64,000 nucleotides of DNA from Balamuthia mandrillaris (GCA_031835245.2 JAVKOQ020000003.1:186001-250000); one strand, 5' to 3'. Counted from the stretch's first letter, positions 19,325-48,609 are shown. Notes: generated by a model from the sequence alone, not told the origin. Translations and numbers: made by a program.

Positions 19325-22178
19325 ATGTTCCACCCCTCTGTGTCTCCGCCGACCACCTCCGCCACCACCGTGAGGCAGAGGGTCAATGGGTGGAAACAAC
19401 AACAGCAGACGAACGTGGCAGCAGCAGCTCCCCTTGCTACCTCTTCGGCGCCGCAGCTAGCGACCGCTCCGCCCGCTCGCCCGATGAGGACTCAGCAGCA
19501 ACCCCCATTCACGGTGGGACCTACCTCTGGACGTAAGCTACAGCCTTTTGGCAATCCACCTCAACAACAGCAGAGACCTCCGATCCCAGCCTCTGTTGTG
19601 GGTAAGTGTTTTTATCTCCTTGCTCCTCTTTCTCTCCTCTTTGTCCTCTTTCTTCTCCTTCTGCTTCTGCTTCTGTTTCTGCTTCTGCTTCTGCTTCTGC
19701 TTCTGCTTCTGCTTCTGCTTCTGCTTCTGCTTCTGCTTCTGCTTCTGCTTCTGCTTCTGCTTCTGCTTCTGCTTCTGCTGCTCCTTCTGCTTCTGCTTCT
19801 GCTTCCTTCTGCTGCTCCTTCTGCTTCTGCTTCTGCTTCTGCTTCTGCTTCTGCTTCTGCTTCTGCTTCTGCTTCTGCTTCTGCTTCTGCTGCTCCTTCT
19901 GCTGCTCCTTCTGCTTCTGCTTCGGCTTCTCCTTCTCCTTCTCCTTCTGCTTCTCCTTCTCCTTCTCCTTCTGCTTCTCCTTCTCCTTCTCTTTCTGAGG
20001 AAAACGCTGTGTTCCATTTTTAAGCGAACAGGGCTGTCACAGCTACGATAAGCCCTCCTTCGTTACCCAGAGTGTTCACGCAAACGAAGCCTAGAACTAG
20101 AGCCAGTGTCATGGCTGACCCTGTTGCTGTTGGAAACCAACTTCAACAGCTCCATCAGTTAAGGGCAGAGTTACCATCCTCTACCAGTGCTAGCAGTGAT
20201 CCCATTTTGGCTGCATTAGCTGTACTTGTTGCACTCTCATCTTGCTTTTTTTAAAAATGCACTTACATTTATTTTGGCTGCAGCAAACAAAGCAAATGAC
20301 CAACAAATATCAAGACTTCTTTAAACTCTTACAGCGTTATCAGGGTGCACTTTCAGGTTTCTTTCTTCTCTCTTCTCTCTTTTCTCTTGCTTGCTCTGTT
20401 CTCATCACTCGCTACCCATACTTTCATTGCAGTGGTGAAGGAATTGGAAGACAGCATAGGAAAAGCTTTGATTGATATAGGCAAGTCTACTGAGGACGAC
20501 ATAGGTATGTCGTCTGTGAAGAAAGAGAAGCAGAAAAGGAGAGGAGCGAGTGAATATGAAAGGGACTTGGACTAACCTCAGGTCCTTAACTCAGGTGGTG
20601 GGATTTCGTCATGCGGAGAGTTATACTCATCCATGGCTGCCGAGTTTCAGGTGAGTTGCAGATTCCTCTTTCTAACACCAGATCGTCACACTAAGGATAT
20701 TATTACTGTGACTACAGTGGAAAGAGTTGGAAGGACTACCCGCTCAAATGAATCTTGAACACCGTGTAAAGCGAGTTATCACATTCGAGAAGGATTACAA
20801 GTCGAACTACAAGAACTTACAAGGCCAACTTAAAAAGCTGGACGGCAAGAGCAGGAGAGTGGGCAAAAAGGCAACCAAGACTACTGACGAATTAAAGCAG
20901 GTACGATCACTGTAATGATTAAATCGCTTGAGTGTTTCTGAGCATTTGTTTCGTTTGAATCAACAACAGTACATCCAGCAGATGAAAGACAAAACTCTTG
21001 AGACCGACAAGTTCAAGGTGGAACAACTTCAAGAAGCCATTCTGCTGGGCCGTGAACAAAATGGAGCTTTCTTGGCGTTGTGGGCGGAATGGATGAACGC
21101 CCGTTCCTCCTACTTCGAGTCCTGTGCAAAGCAAACCCGTCCAGCAGAAGCAGGATGGAAATCGCTTGCCCAGTCTGCTTCCACCCTTCCTACTCTTTCT
21201 ACTTCTGCTACAGGCGCCCCAACGCCATCAGTTCAAGCCAAGGCTCCGCAACTTTCTTCACCTGCTCCAACAGCTTTGCCGCCACTGAACGTGCCGCTTC
21301 CTTTGCCTCCCCAGCCTTCTTCCTCTCCTCTGCCATCTTCCTGTGCTTCATCATCTTCAACAACATCCTCCTCTCCTGTACCCCCTACTTCCCCTCGTCG
21401 CTATGGAGGAGCACCCGCTCTCTTTAGCCAAAGCAAGTCACATCCTACTTTGACCCCGTTTATAACTTCTCCTACCAAGGCCTTCTCTTCCACTCCCACG
21501 CTTTCCAATGAGCAGAAACAACAAGCCTCGCCTCCTATTCCTCATCCTCGTCCTCCTCGCCCTACCTCACCAGCATCCGTCTCAAATTTCTTGTCTCAAT
21601 CAACACCATTAGTTGGAGCGGACATTAGAGGAGGTGGAGGAGAAGAAACCAGCAACCTCTCTCAAATTACAGGCAAGGAAGCAGGCAAGCATACTTTGGG
21701 GCGATCAAGGACCTGTGGTCCTGCAGATGGTGGCCGCATGAGAAAGAAGTCCTTCTCAATGCATCAACCAAGCCCCACTCGTGACGCCGCCTGGAGAGCC
21801 CCCGCTCCTTTCACCGCACTCCCTCTCAGCCCCGTAACTTCAAGCCTGCAACGCAGTGCTGCCCCACCTTCGCAACACCATCACCCACAAAAAGCAGAAG
21901 AGAACCCCAATGAGGAAAGATCAAACGGGTCAGACGCTGAGGAAGGAGCGGAGGGGGAGGAAGAAGTGGTGGAGGTGGGCTACGGTGTGGTCGTGGAGGG
22001 TTCCCTGGAGCAGGAGGTGCTGGCGCTCTACGACTGGAAGGCCAACGACGATGACGAGCTGGATTTCACGGCGGGAACAACCATGACGCTCGTTCGCGAG
22101 CACAACGAGGAGTGGTGGCTCTGTCGTTTGAATGGGAGGACGGCCTTGGTACCTGCCAGCTATGTACAAAAGATGTAA
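19325..22178 (+). CDS. I-BAR/IMD-like helical domain + Pro-rich linker + C-terminal SH3 protein (IRSp53-like architecture)
   Basis: SH3 motif ALYDW...DELDF...EEWW...LVPASYV is clear. Spliced helical region FEKDYKSNYKNLQGQLKKLDGKSRRVGKK resembles IMD. Confidence 0.75.
19662..19992. repeat. (GCTTCT)n / (CCTTCT)n hexanucleotide microsatellite in intron 1 of the SH3 gene
   Basis: Direct tandem hexamers between the GTAAGT donor (19602) and the CAG acceptor (about 20031). Confidence 0.95.
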
Positions 22179-22394: not shown

Positions 22395-22676
22395 GGCAGC
22401 ATCCTTGCTGTGGGGTGGTGCAACTCAGAGAGGGCGCTCGGTGCTGTTCCACCACAACACCAAAGGGGGGAGTGAGGCTCGATCTTCACGGGTGTGTGTG
22501 CTGGATGAACTGCATTCTTGCGCAAAAACGCAGAGCGATCTGCGAATGGGGTCGCTCTTTGGAAAGTGCAAAGGGCGAGATGCAGATTTCCGCTGCTCAA
22601 AAAACCTGAGGGGGACTTAGGTAACCTAAGCCCCCCTGACGCGCTTCCGTGATACCCTCCCCTTTACAGCCCTGCC
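22395..22676 (+). ncRNA. Putative ~280-nt multibranch structured RNA (unassigned)
   Basis: Nested helices 22395-99/22672-76, 22462-72/22657-65, 22486-91/22647-52, 22510-18/22578-85, 22533-41/22549-57, plus hairpin 22610-22635. G-U pairs favour the + strand. Confidence 0.5.
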
Positions 22677-22922: not shown

Positions 22923-24458
22923 ATGTCCCTAGCACCACCATGGAAGACAGACAGCCAAAGAAAGGAAGAGTGGCAGAGGCTGCGCACTGAACTGCAACTG
23001 CCAGACCTGGCAGCTCAATACCTTCCCGTGTCCTCGTTCTTGCGTAAGCATCCCGCTTCGTGTTTGTTTGTGATGGAAGTGTCTTCTCTTTTTTTTACTC
23101 TGCACACACTCATATACATCAAAACAGTGGACAGCTGGCAAGCCGGCTGTGGGGTAGTGTGGGTCAACGACATGTTCACAAAACTGTCCCAGTACACCAG
23201 CATGGACCTGCGCGAGGGAGGCCTCTGCACTCTGTTGCGGCCACAGCAGCACAGCCAGAAGCGAGTGGAAGCAGAGAAGCAGCTCAGAAACGCGCTCTCC
23301 AAGGGGACCGCCTACGAGGCCGATGTGCTGTGCTACAAGAAGGACGGCACCCCCTTTTGGGGTCTGCTCTCCATAGCTCCCGTTCGCAACGAGCTCAAGC
23401 CCAACCGTTACCTCACTGGCGTGTTGGTGGATGTCTCTAAACGTAAGGCGAGGGAGCTGAAGATGATGGAACGGAAGCAGAGCTGCTGCCTTACTCTCCC
23501 TCACAGTGACGTGGGGCCTCGCATGGTCTCCTCTGCCCTCGTGCTTCACTTGTCCTTTGCCAAGGCCTTTGCCTTCCTGACGGACAGCGGCAACCTTACA
23601 GAACAAGCGGGACGTGGTTCCTCCTCGTTTTTCCTCCTACGAAAGATCTTTCAGTTGTTGGATTCCCAGTTGGGGTCGTTTCCATCCTTGCGGAAGGTGG
23701 AGCGTTCCTCTTCATCGGGAGATTACGTCGTGGTGGGAGCCTCCTTCCTGGAACACCAGCGAGCTCAAGCAATCACCCAGAAGTGCGTGCAATCCCGCCA
23801 TCGAGAGAGCACAAGAAGAAGCGGCACGCCACGATCACCCCAGGGCGGACTGAAGAACGGACGAAGGAGCAGTCTTTCCATCATCCAAGAGTCAGAAGAT
23901 GAGTATCATGCTCACAACAGGGTGCTTGAACCCGCTCCAGTGGACCTGATAGAGTCCTATCGTATGCAGAGGCGATACAGTCTGCCTCATCACTCTTCGC
24001 TAGGGATCATACAGGAACACTCCCCTCTGATGGCCACTAGCAACACAGCGCAGCTGAAGTCGTGCCGTTCAGCCGATGACCAACCCAACGAAGCTCAACC
24101 CACTCCAAGAGAAATACGCCAATCCCAAGCCAAGCTCCTTGCTGAAGCCTTCCAATTCATCCAATCCTTTCTTGCAGCTTCCTCTCTTCTCTTCAAAGAA
24201 CACGCCAAGCACGAACCAACAGAGTCCCTTACGGAAAATCTTCTTCCTTCCATGGGTAGCACCATTGGACCCATCGTAATAGGTTCCTTGGACATCACCC
24301 CTCCATTCACCTACGATGTCTGGGGAGACACCTGCGGGGAAGCTGCCGCCTTGGCCAAATCAACGCCTTCAGGCATGCTAACGCTCAGCCGGCTGGCTTT
24401 TGACCTTTGCGCTCTCTTACCTTCTCCTGCACCAACTCACCTGCTTATGAACTGTTAA
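22923..24458 (+). CDS. LOV-like PAS domain + degenerate class III (adenylyl/guanylyl) cyclase-homology domain
   Basis: PAS: VVWVNDMFTKLSQY...CYKKDGTPFWGLLSIAPV...GVLVDVS. Cyclase-like: IFQLLD...KVE..GDYVVVG and GPIVIG...YDVWGDT. Probable in-frame 66-nt intron at 23062-23127. Confidence 0.8.
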   Translation: MSLAPPWKTDSQRKEEWQRLRTELQLPDLAAQYLPVSSFLRKHPASCLFVMEVSSLFFTLHTLIYIKTVDSWQAGCGVVWVNDMFTKLSQYTSMDLREGGLCTLLRPQQHSQKRVEAEKQLRNALSKGTAYEADVLCYKKDGTPFWGLLSIAPVRNELKPNRYLTGVLVDVSKRKARELKMMERKQSCCLTLPHSDVGPRMVSSALVLHLSFAKAFAFLTDSGNLTEQAGRGSSSFFLLRKIFQLLDSQLGSFPSLRKVERSSSSGDYVVVGASFLEHQRAQAITQKCVQSRHRESTRRSGTPRSPQGGLKNGRRSSLSIIQESEDEYHAHNRVLEPAPVDLIESYRMQRRYSLPHHSSLGIIQEHSPLMATSNTAQLKSCRSADDQPNEAQPTPREIRQSQAKLLAEAFQFIQSFLAASSLLFKEHAKHEPTESLTENLLPSMGSTIGPIVIGSLDITPPFTYDVWGDTCGEAAALAKSTPSGMLTLSRLAFDLCALLPSPAPTHLLMNC

Positions 24459-24523
24459 AAATGTACACTGTATTGCATGTAAACAACGAAACAATTGCTG
24501 TAAAACTATGAACAAAGTTTGTA

Positions 24524-26590
24524 TTAAGGAATGCCCATCTGTGCTTCCAGCTTTTGGCTCACATCGCGAACCAGGCTTGGCGTTGAGAGGTGCAGGCAAA
24601 GAGTGCCTCCGTGAACAAGATTAACTGCTTCTCCCAACAGAAAGTCATTGGTGAGGGCCTTTCTTGGCACCTGCTGCCGTTGCAAAGAATCCTGCGAAGC
24701 TTCACCACTCGACTTATTGTTGAGGCGGATATTTTCGGAACTTGAAGTCGGGGACATTTGCGTCGCGCTTAGTTTAAAAGCGTCTGTATGCGTGAGAGAG
24801 AGAGAGAGAAAAGGTTACACGACAGGTTCAGAGCTATGCACACGTGAAAAGTGGGTATGTACCTGATAAAGTTTCGCCAAATGGATCATACTCGACGCTG
24901 ATTTCCAACGGATAACCACGGAATCGTTTGTTTAGCTCGTTTCGCAGATTCTGTAGGGTAAGGTCTTCCTTCGATACAAGAAAGACAAATGGAGAGGAAA
25001 AGTCGAGCTTGACCTTCTCGCTGTTGGACTGTCGTTCCTTTCTAGGGGAGTTGCTGCGCGGAGAGAGAAGGCCTTTCTGTTCTTCAGGTCGCGTTTCAAA
25101 CTCGAAAGTAAAATAACACTTGATAGCAACACAGACGCAGTGGTTGCTGTTCTTCGACATCGTTTGTTCGCAGAATCGGCGAGCCTCCAACGCCCATTCA
25201 TTCATTAAGCTTCGGTCCAGCTTCGGCTCACCGTTGCTTGCGGTCAAGTTGTGTTTTGGAGATAGTGGCGGTGAGCTATCGGAAGAAGTAGAATCATCGC
25301 TCGAGGGAAATTGCAATGGACGATGAGCGTGAGGATCACCAGCATCGGCGCTATTGGTACGAGGCCTCTGCTCTTTTTTGGTATGTCCACGATTGTTGGT
25401 TAGCACGTTTGCTCGGGCTTGCAACCCCTGGTCAAAGATGCTGTCGTTGCTGCTCTTGGAGCGATTCATGGAGAAAGCCTCTTCAGACTCGTTGACGGTA
25501 CGCGGGTATGGTTTGCCTTGTACACGCGCTCTGCGAACAACGGGGCTGCTGCTGCTATCCTCCACGCTCCTCGTCCTGGTCAACGCGTAGCAACTGGAAT
25601 CCTCATCTGATGATGAGGAGTAGCCGGAGCTGCAGCTGCGGACTTTCCTTGTTGCGATTACGTAGTTCCCGCTGCTGTCATCCTTCTCGAGCATGCTCTC
25701 ATACTCGGAGACTGGAATCTTAGCTCTGGACCGTTCGATAGCGTGTTTGATTTGGGACTGCGGAAGAGCGCTCAACCGTTCGTTCATCTTCTCGATGAGG
25801 CCAGCAAGCCGCTCTCTGTCGGCCTCCGCAAAGTTGCCTACAAAGTCCTCCATTCCCAGCTTTACCAAGTCCGCTTTCTTCAAGCCGAGAAACGTCCTTC
25901 CGTCCACATCCTTCTGACAGAACTTCTCGCTATAGACACTGAACCCTGTTTTGTCCAACCACATGGCCACCTCTACTGGAGACCACTCCCGAATACACTT
26001 CAGCTGGTCTATATCGTAGAGCAAGCTCACGTTCTTCTGAATGGCAATGTAATGCGTTACAGCACCTCCTTTTTTGCCATGCTTGTGAACGGGAAGTAAA
26101 AGAAAGCTGTTCCAGAAGGGCAACCCGTCTTTTCTGTAGTTTAACAGTGTGATGGAGAGGTCTCGTCCTTTGGCTAATGCCTTTCGTATCCTACAACAGA
26201 TTAGTGAGATAAAAACAAGACACTTGTGTGAAACATCTTTGCTTGCCAACACTCCCAAAAATAAAGAACAAGAACGTACTTGCGAACGCTAGCTTTGCTT
26301 GTGTACTTTCCTTGCAGGAAGCGGCAGTTCCTCCCAATAATTTCCTCTCGCGGGTAGAGCGTCAGGAACTCAAAGGCATCATTGGCAAAGATAATGGGCT
26401 GGTCTTTGGCTTTGAAGTCGGTTACGACCATCGAGTCGCTCATCGACCGCAGGAAGGGGTACTCCGCCAGCACTCGGCGCTCTAGTTTGAGCGTCTGTTC
26501 CATAGACAAGAGGCAGGTGCGATACTCTCGCAGCTGCCTCTCTCTCAGTTTCTTCGCTTCGTGACTGAGCGTTGAAGTTGATGTTCCCAT
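24524..26590 (-). CDS. LOV (flavin blue-light sensor)-SAM-PB1-like protein, N-myristoylation motif
   Basis: Exons 26590-26280, 26190-24863, 24783-24524. LOV motifs IIFANDAF, GRNCRFLQG, LNYRKDGLPFWN, IAIQ. SAM motif WSPVEVAMWL...DVDGRTFLGL...LVKLGM. Start is MGTSTS. Confidence 0.92.
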
Positions 26591-27146
26591 GTTTGTTGTT
26601 TTTGCTTCCTTGTCGAAGCGAAGCAATGACTTGTGCTTGTGTGAGCTGAGAGGTGGGGTGTGACGTTGCGTGGGCCGAAGGGGAGTGGGTTCGAAGAGAA
26701 CAGCTCAAATCGGTGCGGACGGGTGACGCACAAGCAGAAGCAAAAACGGCGCCGCAAACTCGTCTCAGGTTTTATCAGTATAACTATAGAGTTTCTGTTC
26801 CTTCTGTCTTGTATTCTCTCCTTGTTTCTTTCAGAATAACGAAAACACGACGAAAATAGATTGATAAGCGTGCTATAAGTGCTTCGTAAGCACCCTTGCG
26901 TAACTCACACGCACAGAAGAGCGAAGCGTTATATAATCATTAAACATCTAATATGGTAATTATCTGCTATAAGGCAACAAAAAGAGGTTGTGAGGTAACC
27001 CGTTGTGATCAATGCTCCTGTTAGTTTTAAAACTAGCAGAAAGCGAGAAGAAAATCGAAGCACAAACCGTTTCTCATCTTTACAACGAAGGATCCTAGCT
27101 CCTAAAAATAATGAGGTTGAAAGATACAAGGAAAAAGCAACACTGG

Positions 27147-38560: not shown

Positions 38561-41055
38561 TTATTCGGAGGTTGTAGAACGTTGCAGCTGTTGATAAAAG
38601 TATTCGAAAAGTTGGCTGTACATCTTTTGTGGGCTTCCTCTTAGTACTTGATCACAAAGAGTGAAGAAGGAGAAGAAGAAGAAGAAGAAGAAGAAGAAGA
38701 AGAAGAAGAAGAAGAAGAAGAAGAAGAACAAGAAGAACAAGAAGAACAAGAACAAGAAGAACAAGAACAAGAAGAAGAAGAAGGAGCAGGTACCTGAGCA
38801 AGAATGTCTTGGGCTTGGTTTGCGGAATAACCAGTGGTGGTCACGTAATCACCTTTGCTGGGGTTCAAGTTCGGAGTCCTGCATTGAATGACACAGCGCA
38901 CCTCCTCTTCCGAATACAAAGAACATGGCGTTGGCCCTCCCTCCAACAGAACAGGATAGACGTGGCCTAGTTTAGCAGTCTCGCCCTTATGTTGGTTGTG
39001 AAGACATGGCCCACAGCGTGCAGCCAAGGCTTGGCTTACCCTGCTGCCTTTGCTCGAAAACCGCCAGTTCACCTCGTTCGCCACAAAACTATTGGTTCAG
39101 CATAGGTATGAGAGCATTTCTCCTTTCTTTTCTTGTCTTTTCTGTTCTTTTTGTGCTTGCAAAGAAGGGATAAAGATAGAAAGGAAGCGTACCAGCAAGG
39201 AGTGGAGTGTTGAGTCTTCAACTGAGTTATGTCGGCGTGTTGAACAAGAAAGCGTGGAAGTTTCTCTGAACGCGATGTAATGCTCTTCAATTGTGACGAG
39301 AAGAAGCAGAACGGATCAACCTCTGCTTCCTTGCCGTCATCAAAGTAAAGTTGTTGCAGGCGAGGATGTATGCATAGAATCAAGGTGAAGTCCTCGCCGG
39401 TGTGAGCATCCAGAAACTTTGTCACGGAATGCAACAGCAGGTCGCAAGCCTTTCCAGAGTCGAACCGCAAAAATGGCGCAGTGCAGAAAGGAGGAAAGGC
39501 AAGACAGCGCGCACCTTCCAGTTTGGCAAAGTTGATAGATAAGAGGGGAGGAAGTGGTTGTGCTGAGTTAGTTGATAGTTTTTGTTGTTGATGAGTGGTA
39601 GCTCTTGGCTCGTCCGTTGCTCGTTTCACCTGTTGTGGAGGCATTTCTGCTTCGGAACTTGGTCCTCCTGTTGATTTTATTAGAGGTGGAGGGCGATGAT
39701 GCTGGTGGGAAAGGGGTTTGGAAGGATCTGCTGATACTGATATGGTGGTGTTTATATGAGGAAGGAACTTGGAGGGTTGTTTGTGTTGATCCTTCTTCTC
39801 TTCCTCCTCTTCTTCCGCAGGAGCTTCCAACTTGACAACTTTCTTCTTGGCATCAACAGGGCTAGTAAAAGATTAGTCGGGAAAAACAAAGCAGAGAGAG
39901 AGAGAGAGAGAGAGAGAGCACAAACACAATACGCAGCATTTTCTTTTTGCCGCTTGCTGTAATCGATGTAGACTCTTGTGCTGGCGTTGGACGTTTGGTT
40001 TCGCTGCTGTCTTTGGTGGATTTGGTGTTGGTTTGTGGTTCTGCACCAGCTGTGGCCGTGGTTTTGGCAGTCGTTTTGTTGGTTGAGGAGGTAGTTTTGG
40101 ATGGAATGGGAGGAACAGGATCGGTTATAGCAACGTCTTTCGTGGTAGTCTTGTGGCTTTGTTCTTTGCCTTTGTATGCAATGTTGAGCTCTTTTGCTTT
40201 GGTAGGATCCTTTGTAGTAGTTGTGGAGGAAGAAGAAGCGTTGCCAACAGAAGGCTGTGTTTGCTCTTCCAGGTGAGGATGGCTGAACTGCAGGAAATGG
40301 TCAGGATTGCGCCGAAAGCATTTTTCTCCATACTTGCAAACAGGGAGCCCCTTCTGCCTATTAAGGGCGGCTGACTGCTGTTCTTCTTCTTCTCTATCCT
40401 CGTGGCGAGGCTTCTTAATCCACATGCCTGCGCTAGCAGCACTACTACTGCTGCTGCTAGCTTCAGCAACAGAGGATGGTTCCTCGGCAGGAGCTGCCTT
40501 TCTTTTTTTGGTTGTTGTTGTAGCTTTCGCTTGGTGGTGGTTGTCAGCTGCTCCATATTCGATGTGTAGAGTGTACGTGAACTCGTTGTTAGGGCTCGGG
40601 ATCAGTGCAAACGAGTCTCCGCTTTGCAGGAAGTAAGTCTGTCCGGTGGTCATCTCCATCGGTTCTTGTTGCAGCTTCTCATTGGCGTCCCTCTGCAGGT
40701 AGCTTGGGTTCCTTCCTTCCTGTTGCAAAGCACCCATCAGGCATTCGCGTTTGTCGAGAGGCACAGAAAGAGAAAACGAGAGACCAGGAGAGCGCGAGCA
40801 AGAGAATAGCGTAACGAGAGCGAGAACAGAGCGGCGGGCGGAGACGAAACGTACCTTGACGAAGGACACGCCCGTGTGGGCAACGGTCAAGAGGGCCTGG
40901 TTTCGACTGCAGCGCTTGTCGGTGATGCCCAGGAGGGAGCCTCTCCCCAAAGGAGTAGCGCCGAACGGCAGGATAATCATGTTGCCATCTCTGGTCAGCA
41001 GCATCGCTTGCTTCACAGGGCGACCTTCACCACCATCGCGCCCTTCTCTCTCCAT
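38561..41055 (-). CDS. FHA (APLF/PNKP-type) + PBZ zinc finger + macrodomain protein
   Basis: FHA: LGRGSLLGITDKRCSRNQ...GRNPS. PBZ: CKYGEKCFRRNPDHFLQFSH. Macro-like: LAFPPFCT...DITQL...ANEVNWR...TPNLNP. Confidence 0.85.
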
Positions 41056-41124
41056 TTCTTTGCTTTCTTGCTTGGCTTTTCTTCGAGGAAAAATTTGAAG
41101 AAAAAAGCTTAACACAGCCGCAAG

Positions 41125-42199
41125 ATGGAGGAACCTTTGCCGGAGGAAGGGGAGGAGGAGGAGGAAGAAGAGGTTGGACACCTTCTGATTGTACGTTTTC
41201 TCTAGCTCTCTCTCTCTCTCTCTCTCCAGTTTGTGCTTGGTTTGTGGTTTTGTGTGGTGACACCAGGTTAAATAATAACAGGATGAGGAAGAGCAGGAAC
41301 CGCCGCCCCCTACTTCTTCTTTAAAGAGCGGTGCTGGGGGCAATGCCTCCCGCCGAAAGAGAAAGACACCTCTTTCCAGAACAATGCCTGATGGCCTTGT
41401 TGAAGACAGCAGCAGCCGCTCCCCCAAAAAACTTAGGTACCACCAACTAAACCCTCCCGGCCGATGTTTGCTGGCCACTAACACTCGTGCCTGTGATTTG
41501 TTTCGTTTGTTTTCAAAATAGACTGGAGGACGGCACGTTGAGGGTGAAGGGGCGGTGCATGGCCCCCACGGAAGCCCTTGCCCAGCCCTCCTTGTACTCG
41601 TTGGCACGGCTGTGGCTTGATAACATGACCGCTTCTATCGCCACCCAAGACCAAGAGGTCTTCCTCCTTTCCCCTCTTCCCTCACCACCCTCCTCCTTCT
41701 TCTTCTTCTTCTTCTTCTTCTTGTTCTTCTTCTTCTTCTTCTTCTTCTTGTTCTTCTTCTTCTTCTTCTTCTTCTTCTTCTTCTTCTTCTTCTTCTTCTT
41801 CTTCTTCTTCTTCTTCTTCTTTCTTCTTCTTCTTCTTCTTCTTCTTCTTCTTCTTCTTCTTCTTCTTCTTCTTCTTCTTCTTCTTCTTCTTCTTCTTCTT
41901 CTTCTTCTTCTTCTTCTCCTTCTGCTGCTGCTCCTCCTCTTCTCTTGCTGCACTTTGTTGGCTTGACTGACGGTTGTTTCTTTTGTCCTTTTCTTGCAAA
42001 AGGGGAGCAGCAACAGCGACTCAGCGAAAGCTATGCGACGGATAAAGCTGCCTAGGCCTGCTCCACATACCAAATACTCACTGGCGCGTGGCCCTCCCCC
42101 ACGTCCTCCTCACACCTCTCAGGATTTTGATGTACACTTATACTACTACTACCTTATGTCGCTAGCCCTGTTCTCATCATCCTCTCGCTTCTATCCTCT

Positions 42200-43871: not shown

Positions 43872-45400
43872 ATGGCGTCCAAGTACGTTTGTCCTCAATT
43901 TTTTTTTCATTTCTTGTGAGAGGTTTTTTTTGTTTGGTGCGTAAAACCGGTTACAAAGGCTTACTCTTGCTACTACTATTGTAACCACTTGCTTTCAGTG
44001 GCGACCAACGAAAAAACGGCAAGGCTGGCAGAAGGACCACCGGAAGCCTTGAAATTCTGCACAGACAAAACGTTATTCTCACAAAGCTGAAGCCAAAGCT
44101 AGCTGAGCTGCAGGAACAGGTTCAGGTGTGCTCCAAGCTGTGCTCCGATGAAGCGCTGGTGACGGCCACGTTCCTGTCTTCTCTCACAGACATCAGCAGC
44201 CTTGTACATGACCTACAAAATGAGCGCAGAGAGGAGGCACGTTTTTACAAAGCTTTGATGGTTTGTCTTTCTTTTTTTAAAAAAGTTTTGAAACGTATAC
44301 GTGACTTTTTTTTCTGCCAGGTTAAACAAAAACAAGAGGAAGAAAGCACAAAAGGAGGAGGTAATGGAGGTCATCTAGTGCAGAACATAAAGGACTGCGG
44401 TCGGCTGAGCTTGTTGAATTCAGCTCTGTTGGGACGCATATTCTCATTCCTTCCATCGGAGAGGGATCGACGGGCCATCCTTCTTCTCAACCGCCACTTC
44501 TATAGCAGCTGGAAGAACACTTTATTGCATAATGCTCCTCCTCCAGGGGCTGCTACTGCTATCAACGCCACTGGCAGCAGTGCTGCTACAACAACGCAGC
44601 TTCAGCTACCGTCCTCAGCACAAAAATTGGCTGCGGCAGGAGGAAGCAACAATTCCTCCCCGCGAAGTGCAAGACTAAGCGTGCCTCCTTCCATGATCGA
44701 ATGGATGGAAGAGCAAGGTCTGCCCGCGGAATACGCTACCTTGTTGTGGGGAGCTGGGTTTAAAGGACTGGAGGCCTTGCGCCTCGCCACTGCTGAGGAG
44801 CTTGAGAGGGCTGGCATCAAGAAAACAGGTCATCGCCGTCGTTTACTTTACGCCCTGAAGGAAACCAAACCTACTGCTGCCTCTGCCAAAAAGACCTCAT
44901 CAAAAGAAGAAAACGGAGGTCGAAGCTTTCCGTTTTTGCAATCAAAGAGCGCCTCTCTGGCCCAGTTGCCCTCGACAGGCAGCAGATCCCCACCGCCCCG
45001 CAAACCGCTTACCAGGAAGGAGAAGAAGAAGCAAAAGAAGGAAGAGAAGAAGAAGGAGAAAAACGAAAAGAAGGGCAAAGGACCTGCCAATGTTCCTCAC
45101 GTATTTGTTGATTTTAGCCGCAAGCAGTTGACGGAGGTTCCACCAGAGGTATGGAGCCGTACGGATGCCACCATTCTTAACCTCTTTCAGAACAAGTTGG
45201 ATTCTCTTCCAGGTCCCGAATTAGGTACTGCTGTGAACTAAAATACTTTTTGTTCTTGGTAGTGAGCTAACAATGCTCATCTCTCCCCAGCCAAAATGAA
45301 GTACATCACAATGCTTGGCTTGAACGAGAACAACTTGAAGGAGTTGCCTGCCGAAATCGGCCATCTTCAAACATTGCAGATTCTAGATTTGAGGTCTCTT

Positions 45401-45448
<48 letters not shown>

Positions 45449-47211
45449 TTCTCTCTCGTTTCTTCCCAACAACTAACTTTGTAATATCACATGTTCTCAG
45501 ATCCAACAAACTTGTGTGCATCCCTCCGGAAATACAATATTTGACTAACTTACAACGCCTTTTCCTGAGGTTTAACAAGCTAACCGAGCTTCCTGAAGAA
45601 ATAGGATATTTAGCTTCGTTGGAGGTAAGTTTGTTTCAGCTACCTCTTCTTATCTTTTCTTCTTCACCTTCTCTTTTCTTCACTGCTTCATTTCCTTCGG
45701 AATTGTATTGCACTCCTCAAGAATAAAAATTTTCTAATGTATCTTTCTTCGTTGCAGATTCTTTCTGTAAGGAATAATCAGCTGACCTCTTTGCCAGCTT
45801 CTATTCAAGGCTTGACTTCTCTCAAGATATTGGACGTGTCAAGTAACAAGGTCAAGAAATTAGGCAACATAAGTCAGTTGGTGCATTTGAAGGAGTTGGA
45901 CTTGAAACAAAATTCCCTTTCAGCATTACCAAAAGGTCTAAACACTTTGACAGAGCTTTCTCGCCTCAATCTGTCGCACAATAAGGTATATCTGTCTTTC
46001 TTTAGCTTGTTCCTCTGCTGTTGTTTCTCAAAGAGCTACCTTCATCTCACATCCGCCCTGCTATTGCCAGTTCACAGAGTTTCCGAAATCAGTTGTGGAT
46101 GTGACATGTCTTGAAGAGTTAGATATAGAAGGAAACCAGATATCAACGTTGCCCGAGGAGATTGGCCAATTAACCTGTTTACAGAAGCTCTACCTTAACC
46201 GAAATCGGATAGCGTCCCTTCCCAGTTCTCTTGGGGAGCTTCATGCTCTGCGGGAACTTCAGCTGAAGGGAAATCAGCTGCAGGAACTTCCTGAAATGAA
46301 CGGATTGATGCAGCTTCGTGAGTTGGACATCAGCACTAACTTCTTCGCCCTATTTCCGATGTCGGTGTTGCAGGCCAGCAATTTGTTGACTTTGAATCTC
46401 AGCGATAACACGATCAAGGAACTACCAAAACAGCTTGCTGCCAAACTTCCACAATTGAAGCACCTTAACGCTGAAGGAAACCAGGTACTGATATTTTTGC
46501 TTGTGCATCGTTCTCTTTTCATTACTTTCTAATCTCTCATCGCCACTTCTATTCCTTTCAAGATTGAGCGCTTGCATCGTAAGATAGGAGATATGAAGAA
46601 CCTAAGGCAACTGCGTTTGGGCTATAATGAGTTGGAGAGTCTTCCGGAAGAGTTTGGCGGTATGGCAAGCCTCAAGGAACTGGATCTGGAACACAATGCT
46701 TTATGCTCTCTTCCCCATTCCATAGGAGCGTTATCCTCCCTCTCTCTGTTGGTCCTCAACGACAACGAGCTGGATGGTGCGTGTCTTGGTCCCATTTCTT
46801 CGTCTTCTACCACTGTCTCCTCCTCTGCTAAGTTCGGTTGCCTTGTCGTGTGCTCACCGCTTTTTCTTATTTTCTGAAGATCTCCCGAATGAGTTGGTGG
46901 AGTTAGATAACCTGGGCGAATTGAAGATAGACGGTAATCCCATGAAAGATATTCCAGGTACTTGATTCTTTTTGTTGCTGCAATTATATCAGTGCCCTAA
47001 TAATGACCCACTCATCAGATGCTCAACACGGTGGTAACGCTGTTTTCCACTTTTTGATGAAACGCGCGAGAAAAGGTTCGTTCTCCTTCGCCGCTCCCTT
47101 TTATCGGTCGTCCTCTTCAATAGCCTGCCGAACTTTTGCTCACCTTCGTCCTCCTTCCAATAAGCAGAAGCGGCTGCTGCCAACAACAAAAAAGGTGCAA
47201 GACGCAAGTGA
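43872..47211 (+). CDS. SAM + leucine-rich repeat protein (with F-box-like segment)
   Basis: LLGRIFSFL (F-box-like); SAM motif EWMEEQGL..EYA...ELERAGIKKTGHRRRLL; many LxxLxLxxNxLxxLP repeats across exons. 3' end approximate. Confidence 0.85.
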
Positions 47212-47634
47212 AGCCCGCCCCCTTCGCCCTCCTTTCCCAGCGTTTTTTTTTTTTTTTTGTTGTTGTGTGTGGTTTTGGTTGTATGTTGCCGTTTGTGGGT
47301 GCACGGAGAAGAAAGGCCGCCTGGGCCTCGCTCGTCTGCACCCCGCCACCCTCTATTACTGTAAACTATTCCCCCCTCTTGTTGCTTCTCTACCTACCCA
47401 CCACCAATGAATGCATGCATGCATGCATGTATTGTCGTTGTGGTTGGGATCTTCCTTCCACGCGAAGTTCCATTGTTCTTCTTTTTTTTTGTTGTTTTGG
47501 TTTTTTTTTATTTTATTTTGTTCGAAACCAGAAAAAAAAAAGAAAGAGGACAAAAAGAGGGAGAGAGAGAGAGAAAGCGAGAGAGAGAACACCTCGGGGG
47601 ATAGAGTCACACAACACAACCACACAACCGGCAA

Positions 47635-48609
47635 ATGAGACGCTCCAAGACAAGCACCCGTTCGCTGGAACGAGCGGACTACACTCCGATGGAGATGGAG
47701 CTCTTGTCCTCGCAGAACACCCAGAAAAACTACAAAACGCTGCAAGAGGAAGGCACTTACTGGTGCTTCTTCGCTCCTTTCTTCTCCTCCCCTTCCCAAA
47801 AGAGCTGACCAGGAGTTATGACTCAAGTTGAGAGGATTTTGGGGTTTTGATGGGAGATGCGTTGGGTCGTTGGTTAACCTTATGTTATTAACACTTGATC
47901 ATGCAGTTGCGCTCACTGTGGGCTGCGCTTGTTCAACTCAGCGGACAAGTTCGTGGCGAACAAGGGAGGCCCCACCTCGAGCTTCCGCTCCACCTTCAGC
48001 GAGGGCTGTGTGACCACTGGTGTTGACTACAGTTTCGGTTTACCCTCCATCAGCCTTAATTGTGCTGGCGTGCGTGTTCCTCCCTTTCTTAGCGCGCTCC
48101 TTATGATCACTCACCTCGTGCTTTCCTCTTCACCGATCCTCCCTTCTCTCTCATTCCCGTTTGATTAGTGCGGCCTCTATTTGGGGTCTCTGTACAAAGA
48201 CGGAAAACAAACTGGAGACGACCACCCTGCTGCTGGCCAGCGTTATTCCATCGTATCGGCTGCCGTGGAGTTTGAGAACAGCGCCAATGCAGCCATTGCC
48301 CCCGATGAGGTGTGCGTGGTGGCTGCGCCAGTACAAACGGAGGAAGAGGAAGAGCCAGAAGTGCCGACCTACGCCTCCTCCTCGTCAGCGGCCTCCTCGC
48401 ACATGGCGGACCCTTCTGGCTTGGACATCCTGACCGAAAAGCAGAGCCACCACCAACAGCAGCACACCGAGCAATCCCTCAAAAGCACCCACAAGGCACC
48501 AACAAAAAGCGGCAGCGGAGGAAACCTCGTCAAGTATGCCCACCTGGTGCTGCTGGCCGCCCCCCTCTGTCTTGCTCTCTACAACAAATATCAAAAGGGT
48601 TCTCACTAG
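47635..48609 (+). CDS. MsrB/SelR-fold protein lacking catalytic Cys, C-terminal TM anchor
   Basis: Exons 47635-47762, 47907-48069, 48169-48609 give GTYCCAHCGLRLFNSADKF...DYSFG...CAGCGLYLGSLYKDG...RYSIVSAAVEF. Confidence 0.8.

Follow-up and report, generated by a model that had tools for sequence, protein, structure and literature searches.

Two PAS-family genes stand tail to tail in the 64,000-nucleotide stretch of DNA analysed here (the window), and the reading that we favour, with moderate confidence, is that they are independent signalling genes placed side by side by chance in a compact eukaryotic genome: gene B is likely a photoreceptor and scaffold, and gene A likely a flavin-less, inactive PAS-cyclase. 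Gene A (22923..24458, plus strand) runs from an ATG at 22923 to a TAA stop at 24456-24458 and appears to join a LOV-like PAS domain to a class III pseudo-cyclase; gene B (24524..26590, minus strand; 632 aa) runs from an ATG at 26590 to a stop at 24524-24526, with the predicted order LOV, SAM, Ser-rich linker and ubiquitin-like (PB1-like) domain. The original prediction had described the two as adjacent, convergent, separated by 65 bp between their stops and the sole PAS genes of the window, and on all these points the coordinates and Pfam agree. Pfam PAS matches fell in only three reading frames, all from genes A and B, in a scan of 391 of the 397 stop-to-stop frames of at least 75 aa, with an SH3 frame scanned separately and five low-complexity frames at 19488-20062 omitted; a six-frame motif scan for K[DN]GxxFW found only 23340 and 26132. 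A long simple-repeat tract at 19540-20020 opens low-complexity frames on both strands.

The window carries ELMO, PEX11, RPN7 and RCC1-repeat genes, and in genes neighbouring the pair the reads reveal splicing of 64-86-nt introns; together these identify it as eukaryotic. The domain architectures lead us to guess at an amoebozoan source. The AT-rich gap between the stop codons of genes A and B (24459..24523, 65 bp) is ordinary, since a further two convergent pairs in the window, with predicted last exons, are spaced 80 and 37 bp apart. The same adjacency is found in run X2, from the same organism, where a contig covering 22315-25296 bridges the gap. Both loci are transcribed: reads are present on both genes (31, 37 and 8 reads over 8 kb), in numbers too low to reveal their introns or an overlap of their 3′ UTRs. 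Upstream of gene B, two reads of run X5 skip 26963-27133, with 14 other letters between, perhaps reflecting a strain deletion. Elsewhere in the window, a second SAM-domain gene (43985-45238, plus strand) lies upstream of leucine-rich-repeat frames (45629-46874), and a frame at 39865-41634 (minus strand) combines FHA with PBZ (zf-CCHH), an arrangement known from APLF-like repair proteins.

The gene B model has three exons (26590-26280, 26190-24863 and 24783-24524) separated by two putative introns (26279-26191 and 24862-24784) whose joints no read shows; this intron pair was picked among 12 in-frame combinations on the strength of its donors and of the unbroken LOV helix that it yields. Residues 51-158 (26028..26440, minus strand, split by intron 26279-26191) then form a canonical LOV domain. 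The domain keeps 8/8 key flavin and photocycle residues, a count that depends on the predicted intron 26279-26191: GxNCRFLQG with the photoactive Cys (codon at 26326) and the Arg, Asn, Asn and Gln flavin contacts are all present. It also retains 36 of the 39 positions at which 80 or more of 101 reference LOV domains agree, although such counts favour gene B because most of the references were fetched with gene B as query. We infer from these residues that gene B would bind flavin and form a cysteine adduct in blue light, following the LOV flavin photocycle (447 to 390 nm). Identity to many bacterial LOV domains is 40-56%; a record in a viral contig collection (L092:3001-3147) has a LOV domain 63% identical to that of gene B over 49 residues, and an Atlas search with gene B exon 2 returned nothing but PAS fragments scoring under 0.8. 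At one site outside the flavin-contact set, gene B has Leu78 where 98 of the 101 references have Gly. This replacement explains why gene B, in contrast to 89 of the 101 references, misses the LOV search pattern [NS]-x2-[FPGHSA]-x4-[GEQR]-x(9,11)-C published in PMC4844311, a pattern that gene A matches.

About 12 residues separate the LOV core from the SAM domain, whose matched core (25842..25994, minus strand) scores 30.7 bits against Pfam SAM_2 (cut-off 20.5) and which also matches the SAM domains of SARM1, Shank2 and DGK-delta. Towards the C terminus lies a predicted beta-grasp of PB1, RA or UBX-like type (24740..25139, minus strand, right end approximate) that spans the putative intron 24862-24784. 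A single-sequence model of its exon-2 part (pLDDT 69, with the last nine residues intron-coded) matched ATG8-like, UBX, FERM, RA and PB1 chains at Z 4.2-6.6, with MEKK3 PB1 at Z 4.4; this partial model does not tell PB1 from RA, UBX or ATG8-like for this end of the protein. Foldseek returned no match under E 0.001 for the model, and the domain had no Pfam match and no PDB sequence match; the model weakly supports a ubiquitin-like (PB1-like) assignment. At its other end the protein begins MGxxxS, which fits the myristoylation consensus.

This order of domains resembles Physarum LovA, given as RasGAP-PB1-PAS_9-SAM-PB1 in PMC4758236, the one description of a LOV-SAM-PB1 architecture that we found in the literature. 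Both proteins have a LOV domain with NCRFLQ, then a SAM domain, then a C-terminal beta-grasp, which in gene B is a predicted one; gene B differs in being without the RasGAP and first PB1 and in its possible myristoylation start, and the likeness is one of domain order. Pfam found no RasGAP among the window frames scanned, and the ~560 bp between the gene B ATG and the upstream RCC1-repeat gene leave no room for an N-terminal RasGAP-PB1. Gene B looks like the C-terminal part of LovA standing alone, that is, a truncated LovA-like variant, and is likely a blue-light receptor with scaffold domains. In such a receptor the light-induced change would pass through the short linker to the SAM domain, and the contacts of the SAM and beta-grasp domains, with gene B itself or with signalling partners, would be altered, possibly at a membrane.

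Gene A encodes 511 aa read through, or 483 aa once a putative in-frame GT..AG intron (23044..23127, plus strand; 84 nt) is removed. No read shows the joint; the intron has a GC content of 39% against 55% in exon 2, and its removal restores the LOV register of the first PAS strand. We rejected an alternative intron at 23081-23134, which is short and has a poor donor. A contig of run X1 spans 23137-24140 of the gene without gaps. The PAS domain (Pfam PAS_9, E 2.5e-11; 23028..23435, plus strand) finds its best solved and library matches in phototropin-type LOV domains, and the photoactive Cys is kept in register (C102, codon at 23226). The Asn, Arg and Gln of the NCRFLQ stretch and the Asn, Asn and Gln of the sheet have been replaced by Leu, Thr, Arg, Cys, Gly and Leu, leaving 2/8 key LOV residues and 18/39 conserved positions; with these six flavin-pocket residues lost, flavin binding is unlikely, and the domain is likely flavin-less. 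The proposed division into one photoactive and one blind domain looks right on both sides (8/8 versus 2/8 residues), but the blindness would not come about through loss of the Cys, which gene A keeps. A PAS-PAS-kinase protein (P0003, residues 201-300) has a second PAS degenerate in much the same way, with the Cys kept and the Asn of its NYRKDG stretch changed to Cys; in one tree it forms a long-branch pair with gene A.

The remainder of gene A (23520..24455, plus strand) resembles a degenerate class III nucleotidyl cyclase fold by phmmer, Atlas features, profile and model. Six of seven phmmer matches of this region are adenylate cyclases, weakly (best E 0.19); language-model features (Atlas) give the Guanylate_cyc set in 26/30 matches with a score of 0.90; and Pfam Guanylate_cyc reaches 12 bits, below its 21.9-bit cut-off. 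These three lines are independent of the custom cyclase alignment. A profile of 20 of 30 fetched bacterial loci, selected by catalytic motifs, scored 18.1 bits on gene A without, and 16.3 with, a low-confidence insert of ~100 aa inside the fold (23802..24104, plus strand; pLDDT under 50, model residues 110-187), compared with 3.0 for the best of 1000 shuffles. A model folded on an alignment of 15 bacterial cyclase domains from the profile set (pLDDT 66) matched rat AC2 C2 with Z 18.1 (rmsd 3.2, 174 aligned), a match that is partly circular because the model was folded on a cyclase alignment. A class III cyclase homology fold in gene A is supported by these searches and this model.

Whether such a fold could catalyse depends on residues that PMC4886424 divides into metal-binding Asp, substrate-specifying and transition-state classes. 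In gene A the transition-state Asn and Arg columns hold Gly472 and Ala476 (read-through numbering; all three alignments), the strand-4 Arg is Ser and the KGKG flap is absent; we infer from these gaps that it is likely inactive alone and likely a pseudo-cyclase. D267 falls in a metal-Asp column in both alignments, one residue short of the GDAY register, and D221 does so in one alignment and not another, with the model locating it where helix 1 ends rather than in strand 1. Since both metal-binding Asp may survive (in one alignment), gene A could be half of a heterodimeric cyclase. The C1 and sGC-alpha cyclase half-domains lack the Asn and Arg; gene A goes beyond them, having neither the KGKG flap nor the strand-4 Arg, and the assignment of its Asp positions is uncertain. 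The proposed link to cyclic nucleotides holds to the extent that gene A carries a cyclase-like domain, but its output is doubtful with the Asn, Arg and KGKG flap missing.

Known systems offer partial parallels. The mPAC protein of Microcoleus, described in PMC4526808 as a photoactive and catalytic LOV-adenylyl cyclase, has a LOV-type domain ahead of a class III cyclase fold, as gene A does; unlike mPAC, gene A appears inactive in each of its two domains and contains the 100-residue insert. PAS/PAC-domain cyclases reported in Physarum (PMC4758236) have in common with gene A the PAS plus cyclase architecture. Phototropin and bacterial LOV sensors differ from genes A and B in their effectors, and from gene A in that it has lost most of the flavin pocket. 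In the literature on amoeba LOV proteins, LovA and pseudo-cyclases we found the pair undescribed; the catalogue of Glantz et al. 2016 or the Physarum supplement may list LOV-SAM or PAS-cyclase proteins, and 10.1101/2024.09.02.610796 and PMC8017926 have little bearing on the two genes. Only 2 of 159 fetched proteins have a cyclase domain, and none matches gene A or gene B beyond the PAS. Word-based, weak orthologue searches for the two genes gave 5, 0, 4 and 0 matches, generic PAS at most and with no eukaryotic relative among them; one orthologue search returned 11 loci whose matches stayed inside the LOV part except for one that extended weakly beyond it; three of these loci were inspected and are bacterial. 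Exact look-ups of four unspliced frames gave no match.

No full-length relative of gene A occurs in the best 150 of 3984 matches from 1.84 billion representatives, which match through the PAS only, at 22-44% identity; gene A is likely an orphan PAS pseudo-cyclase. This lack of relatives and the degeneracy of both domains are what a decaying PAS-cyclase copy without present function might present, yet the frame is long, intact and transcribed, and its variation is biased towards silent changes. In the X1 contig 7/9 differences from gene A are silent (p about 0.01 versus 34% expected), and across runs 7/11, two extra replacements coming from other contigs; the four replacements fall in the N-terminus, PAS or insert, and none in the cyclase core. 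Gene A is apparently under purifying selection, and we consider decay quite improbable. As an independent gene maintained for something other than catalysis, gene A may use its PAS to bind proteins or small ligands, and its cyclase fold may bind active cyclases or damp them, perhaps under PKA feedback. This role for gene A is the weakest step of our proposal. Three R[RK]x[ST] motifs (like RRxS, a PKA consensus) lie at ~23478-23489, 23865-23876 and 23970-23981, two of them inside the cyclase insert, and gene B has none.

The two genes had been thought to derive from an old local duplication, on account of a YxKDGxPFW pattern in both PAS cores. That pattern is not special: it is exact in 21 of 101 unrelated references, and [YF]xKDGxxFW occurs in 77 of 101, which makes the YxKDGxxFW common to both genes a LOV family consensus. 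Across 104 aligned columns their PAS domains share 26% identity; of the 101 references, 84 are as close to gene A as gene B is, or closer, and gene B ranks 120th among 395 domain matches to gene A, most of them from proteins found with gene A as query. Outside the PAS core we found no similarity between the genes at the protein or DNA level, the intron position in the gene B LOV domain has no intron in gene A, and the effector domains are unrelated. In a careful tree (46 rows, after thinning 103 at 70% identity) and a quick one (45 rows), neither containing amoebozoan or same-genome PAS domains, gene A is a very long branch grouped with other long branches and gene B sits among ordinary LOV domains; they are not sisters in either. 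Trees constrained to hold the two as a clade are worse by 6.1 and 2.2 log units (AU p 0.33 and 0.43), so sisterhood is not rejected, and the duplication is unsupported rather than excluded. Had a LOV gene been duplicated locally (in inverted form) long ago and the copies diverged completely, they would now be related neighbours that are no longer partners. Such a history would account for two LOV-type domains, for the Cys that gene A keeps and for the adjacency of the sole PAS genes detected in the 64 kb; given the low identity, the rank, the unshared intron position, the lack of DNA similarity and the unrelated effectors, we judge it unlikely.

Coincidence, for its part, can be roughly gauged. 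Acanthamoeba PAS proteins number 50-80 according to PMC10468136, and with such numbers, and assumed gene totals, 0.08-0.42 chance-adjacent PAS pairs are expected per genome; on these borrowed figures the probability of adjacency by chance falls short of 50%, and it drops further if LOV-like domains alone are counted. We think that the pair as such is probably a coincidence.

The original prediction went further and proposed a two-gene light-signalling module, in which lit gene B would bind gene A through PAS-PAS contacts and the cyclase-like domain of gene A would alter cAMP or cGMP, the likeliest route being that it pairs with an active cyclase domain separate from itself. The complementary look of a sighted and a blind LOV domain in adjacent genes is in keeping with this proposal, as are the retained fold of gene A, its silent-biased variation, its two possibly retained Asp and the many cyclases of amoebozoans (PMC4758236). 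Gene A would, however, be unable to build a normal homodimeric active site, its cyclase being predicted dead; gene B has likely output domains of its own; and nothing points to a duplication. Nor are adjacency and a 65-bp spacing out of the ordinary here. We find the module unsupported and very improbable, and would say the same of a version in which blue light makes a LOV-SAM-PB1 receptor tethered to the membrane seize the flavin-less protein encoded next door, whose dead cyclase then pairs with one of the cell's working cyclases and raises or lowers its activity.

A structured RNA had also been suggested directly upstream of gene A, in an intergenic stretch (22395..22676) that contains a palindromic hairpin (22609-22637). 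Rfam assigned no family to this stretch, a lone match elsewhere being far under cut-off (E 0.63). Its fold score (z -3.25) was also reached by 1 of 64 evenly spaced windows; with fewer shuffles it scored -2.88, second of 64. The lowest z-score among the 64 was that of 47395-47676 (-3.62). Run X2 differs at 5 positions in the 282 nt of the upstream stretch versus 3 in 3603 nt of genes A and B, flanking intergenic DNA being 0.8-3.1% different; some of the X2 homopolymer differences may be assembly errors. The X2 changes in the hairpin are on one arm only and weaken it from -20.0 to -12.9 kcal/mol, with the fold of the whole stretch barely changed (-117.7 to -116.3). With no Rfam family, a fold score that 1 of 64 unselected windows also reached and variation like that of intergenic DNA, the most fitting reading of 22395-22676 is intergenic or promoter DNA.

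The pair as such teaches little without a demonstrated link between A and B, and the interest lies in each gene by itself. Gene A adds an orphan PAS pseudo-cyclase, seemingly maintained by selection. Blue-light receptors of amoeboid protists are called poorly studied in PMC4758236, and gene B offers a compact, soluble candidate whose SAM domain follows immediately on the LOV domain. Should the assembly of SAM or PB1 be under light control, which we put forward tentatively as a possibility, gene B would be a natural light-switched scaffold and might find optogenetic use.
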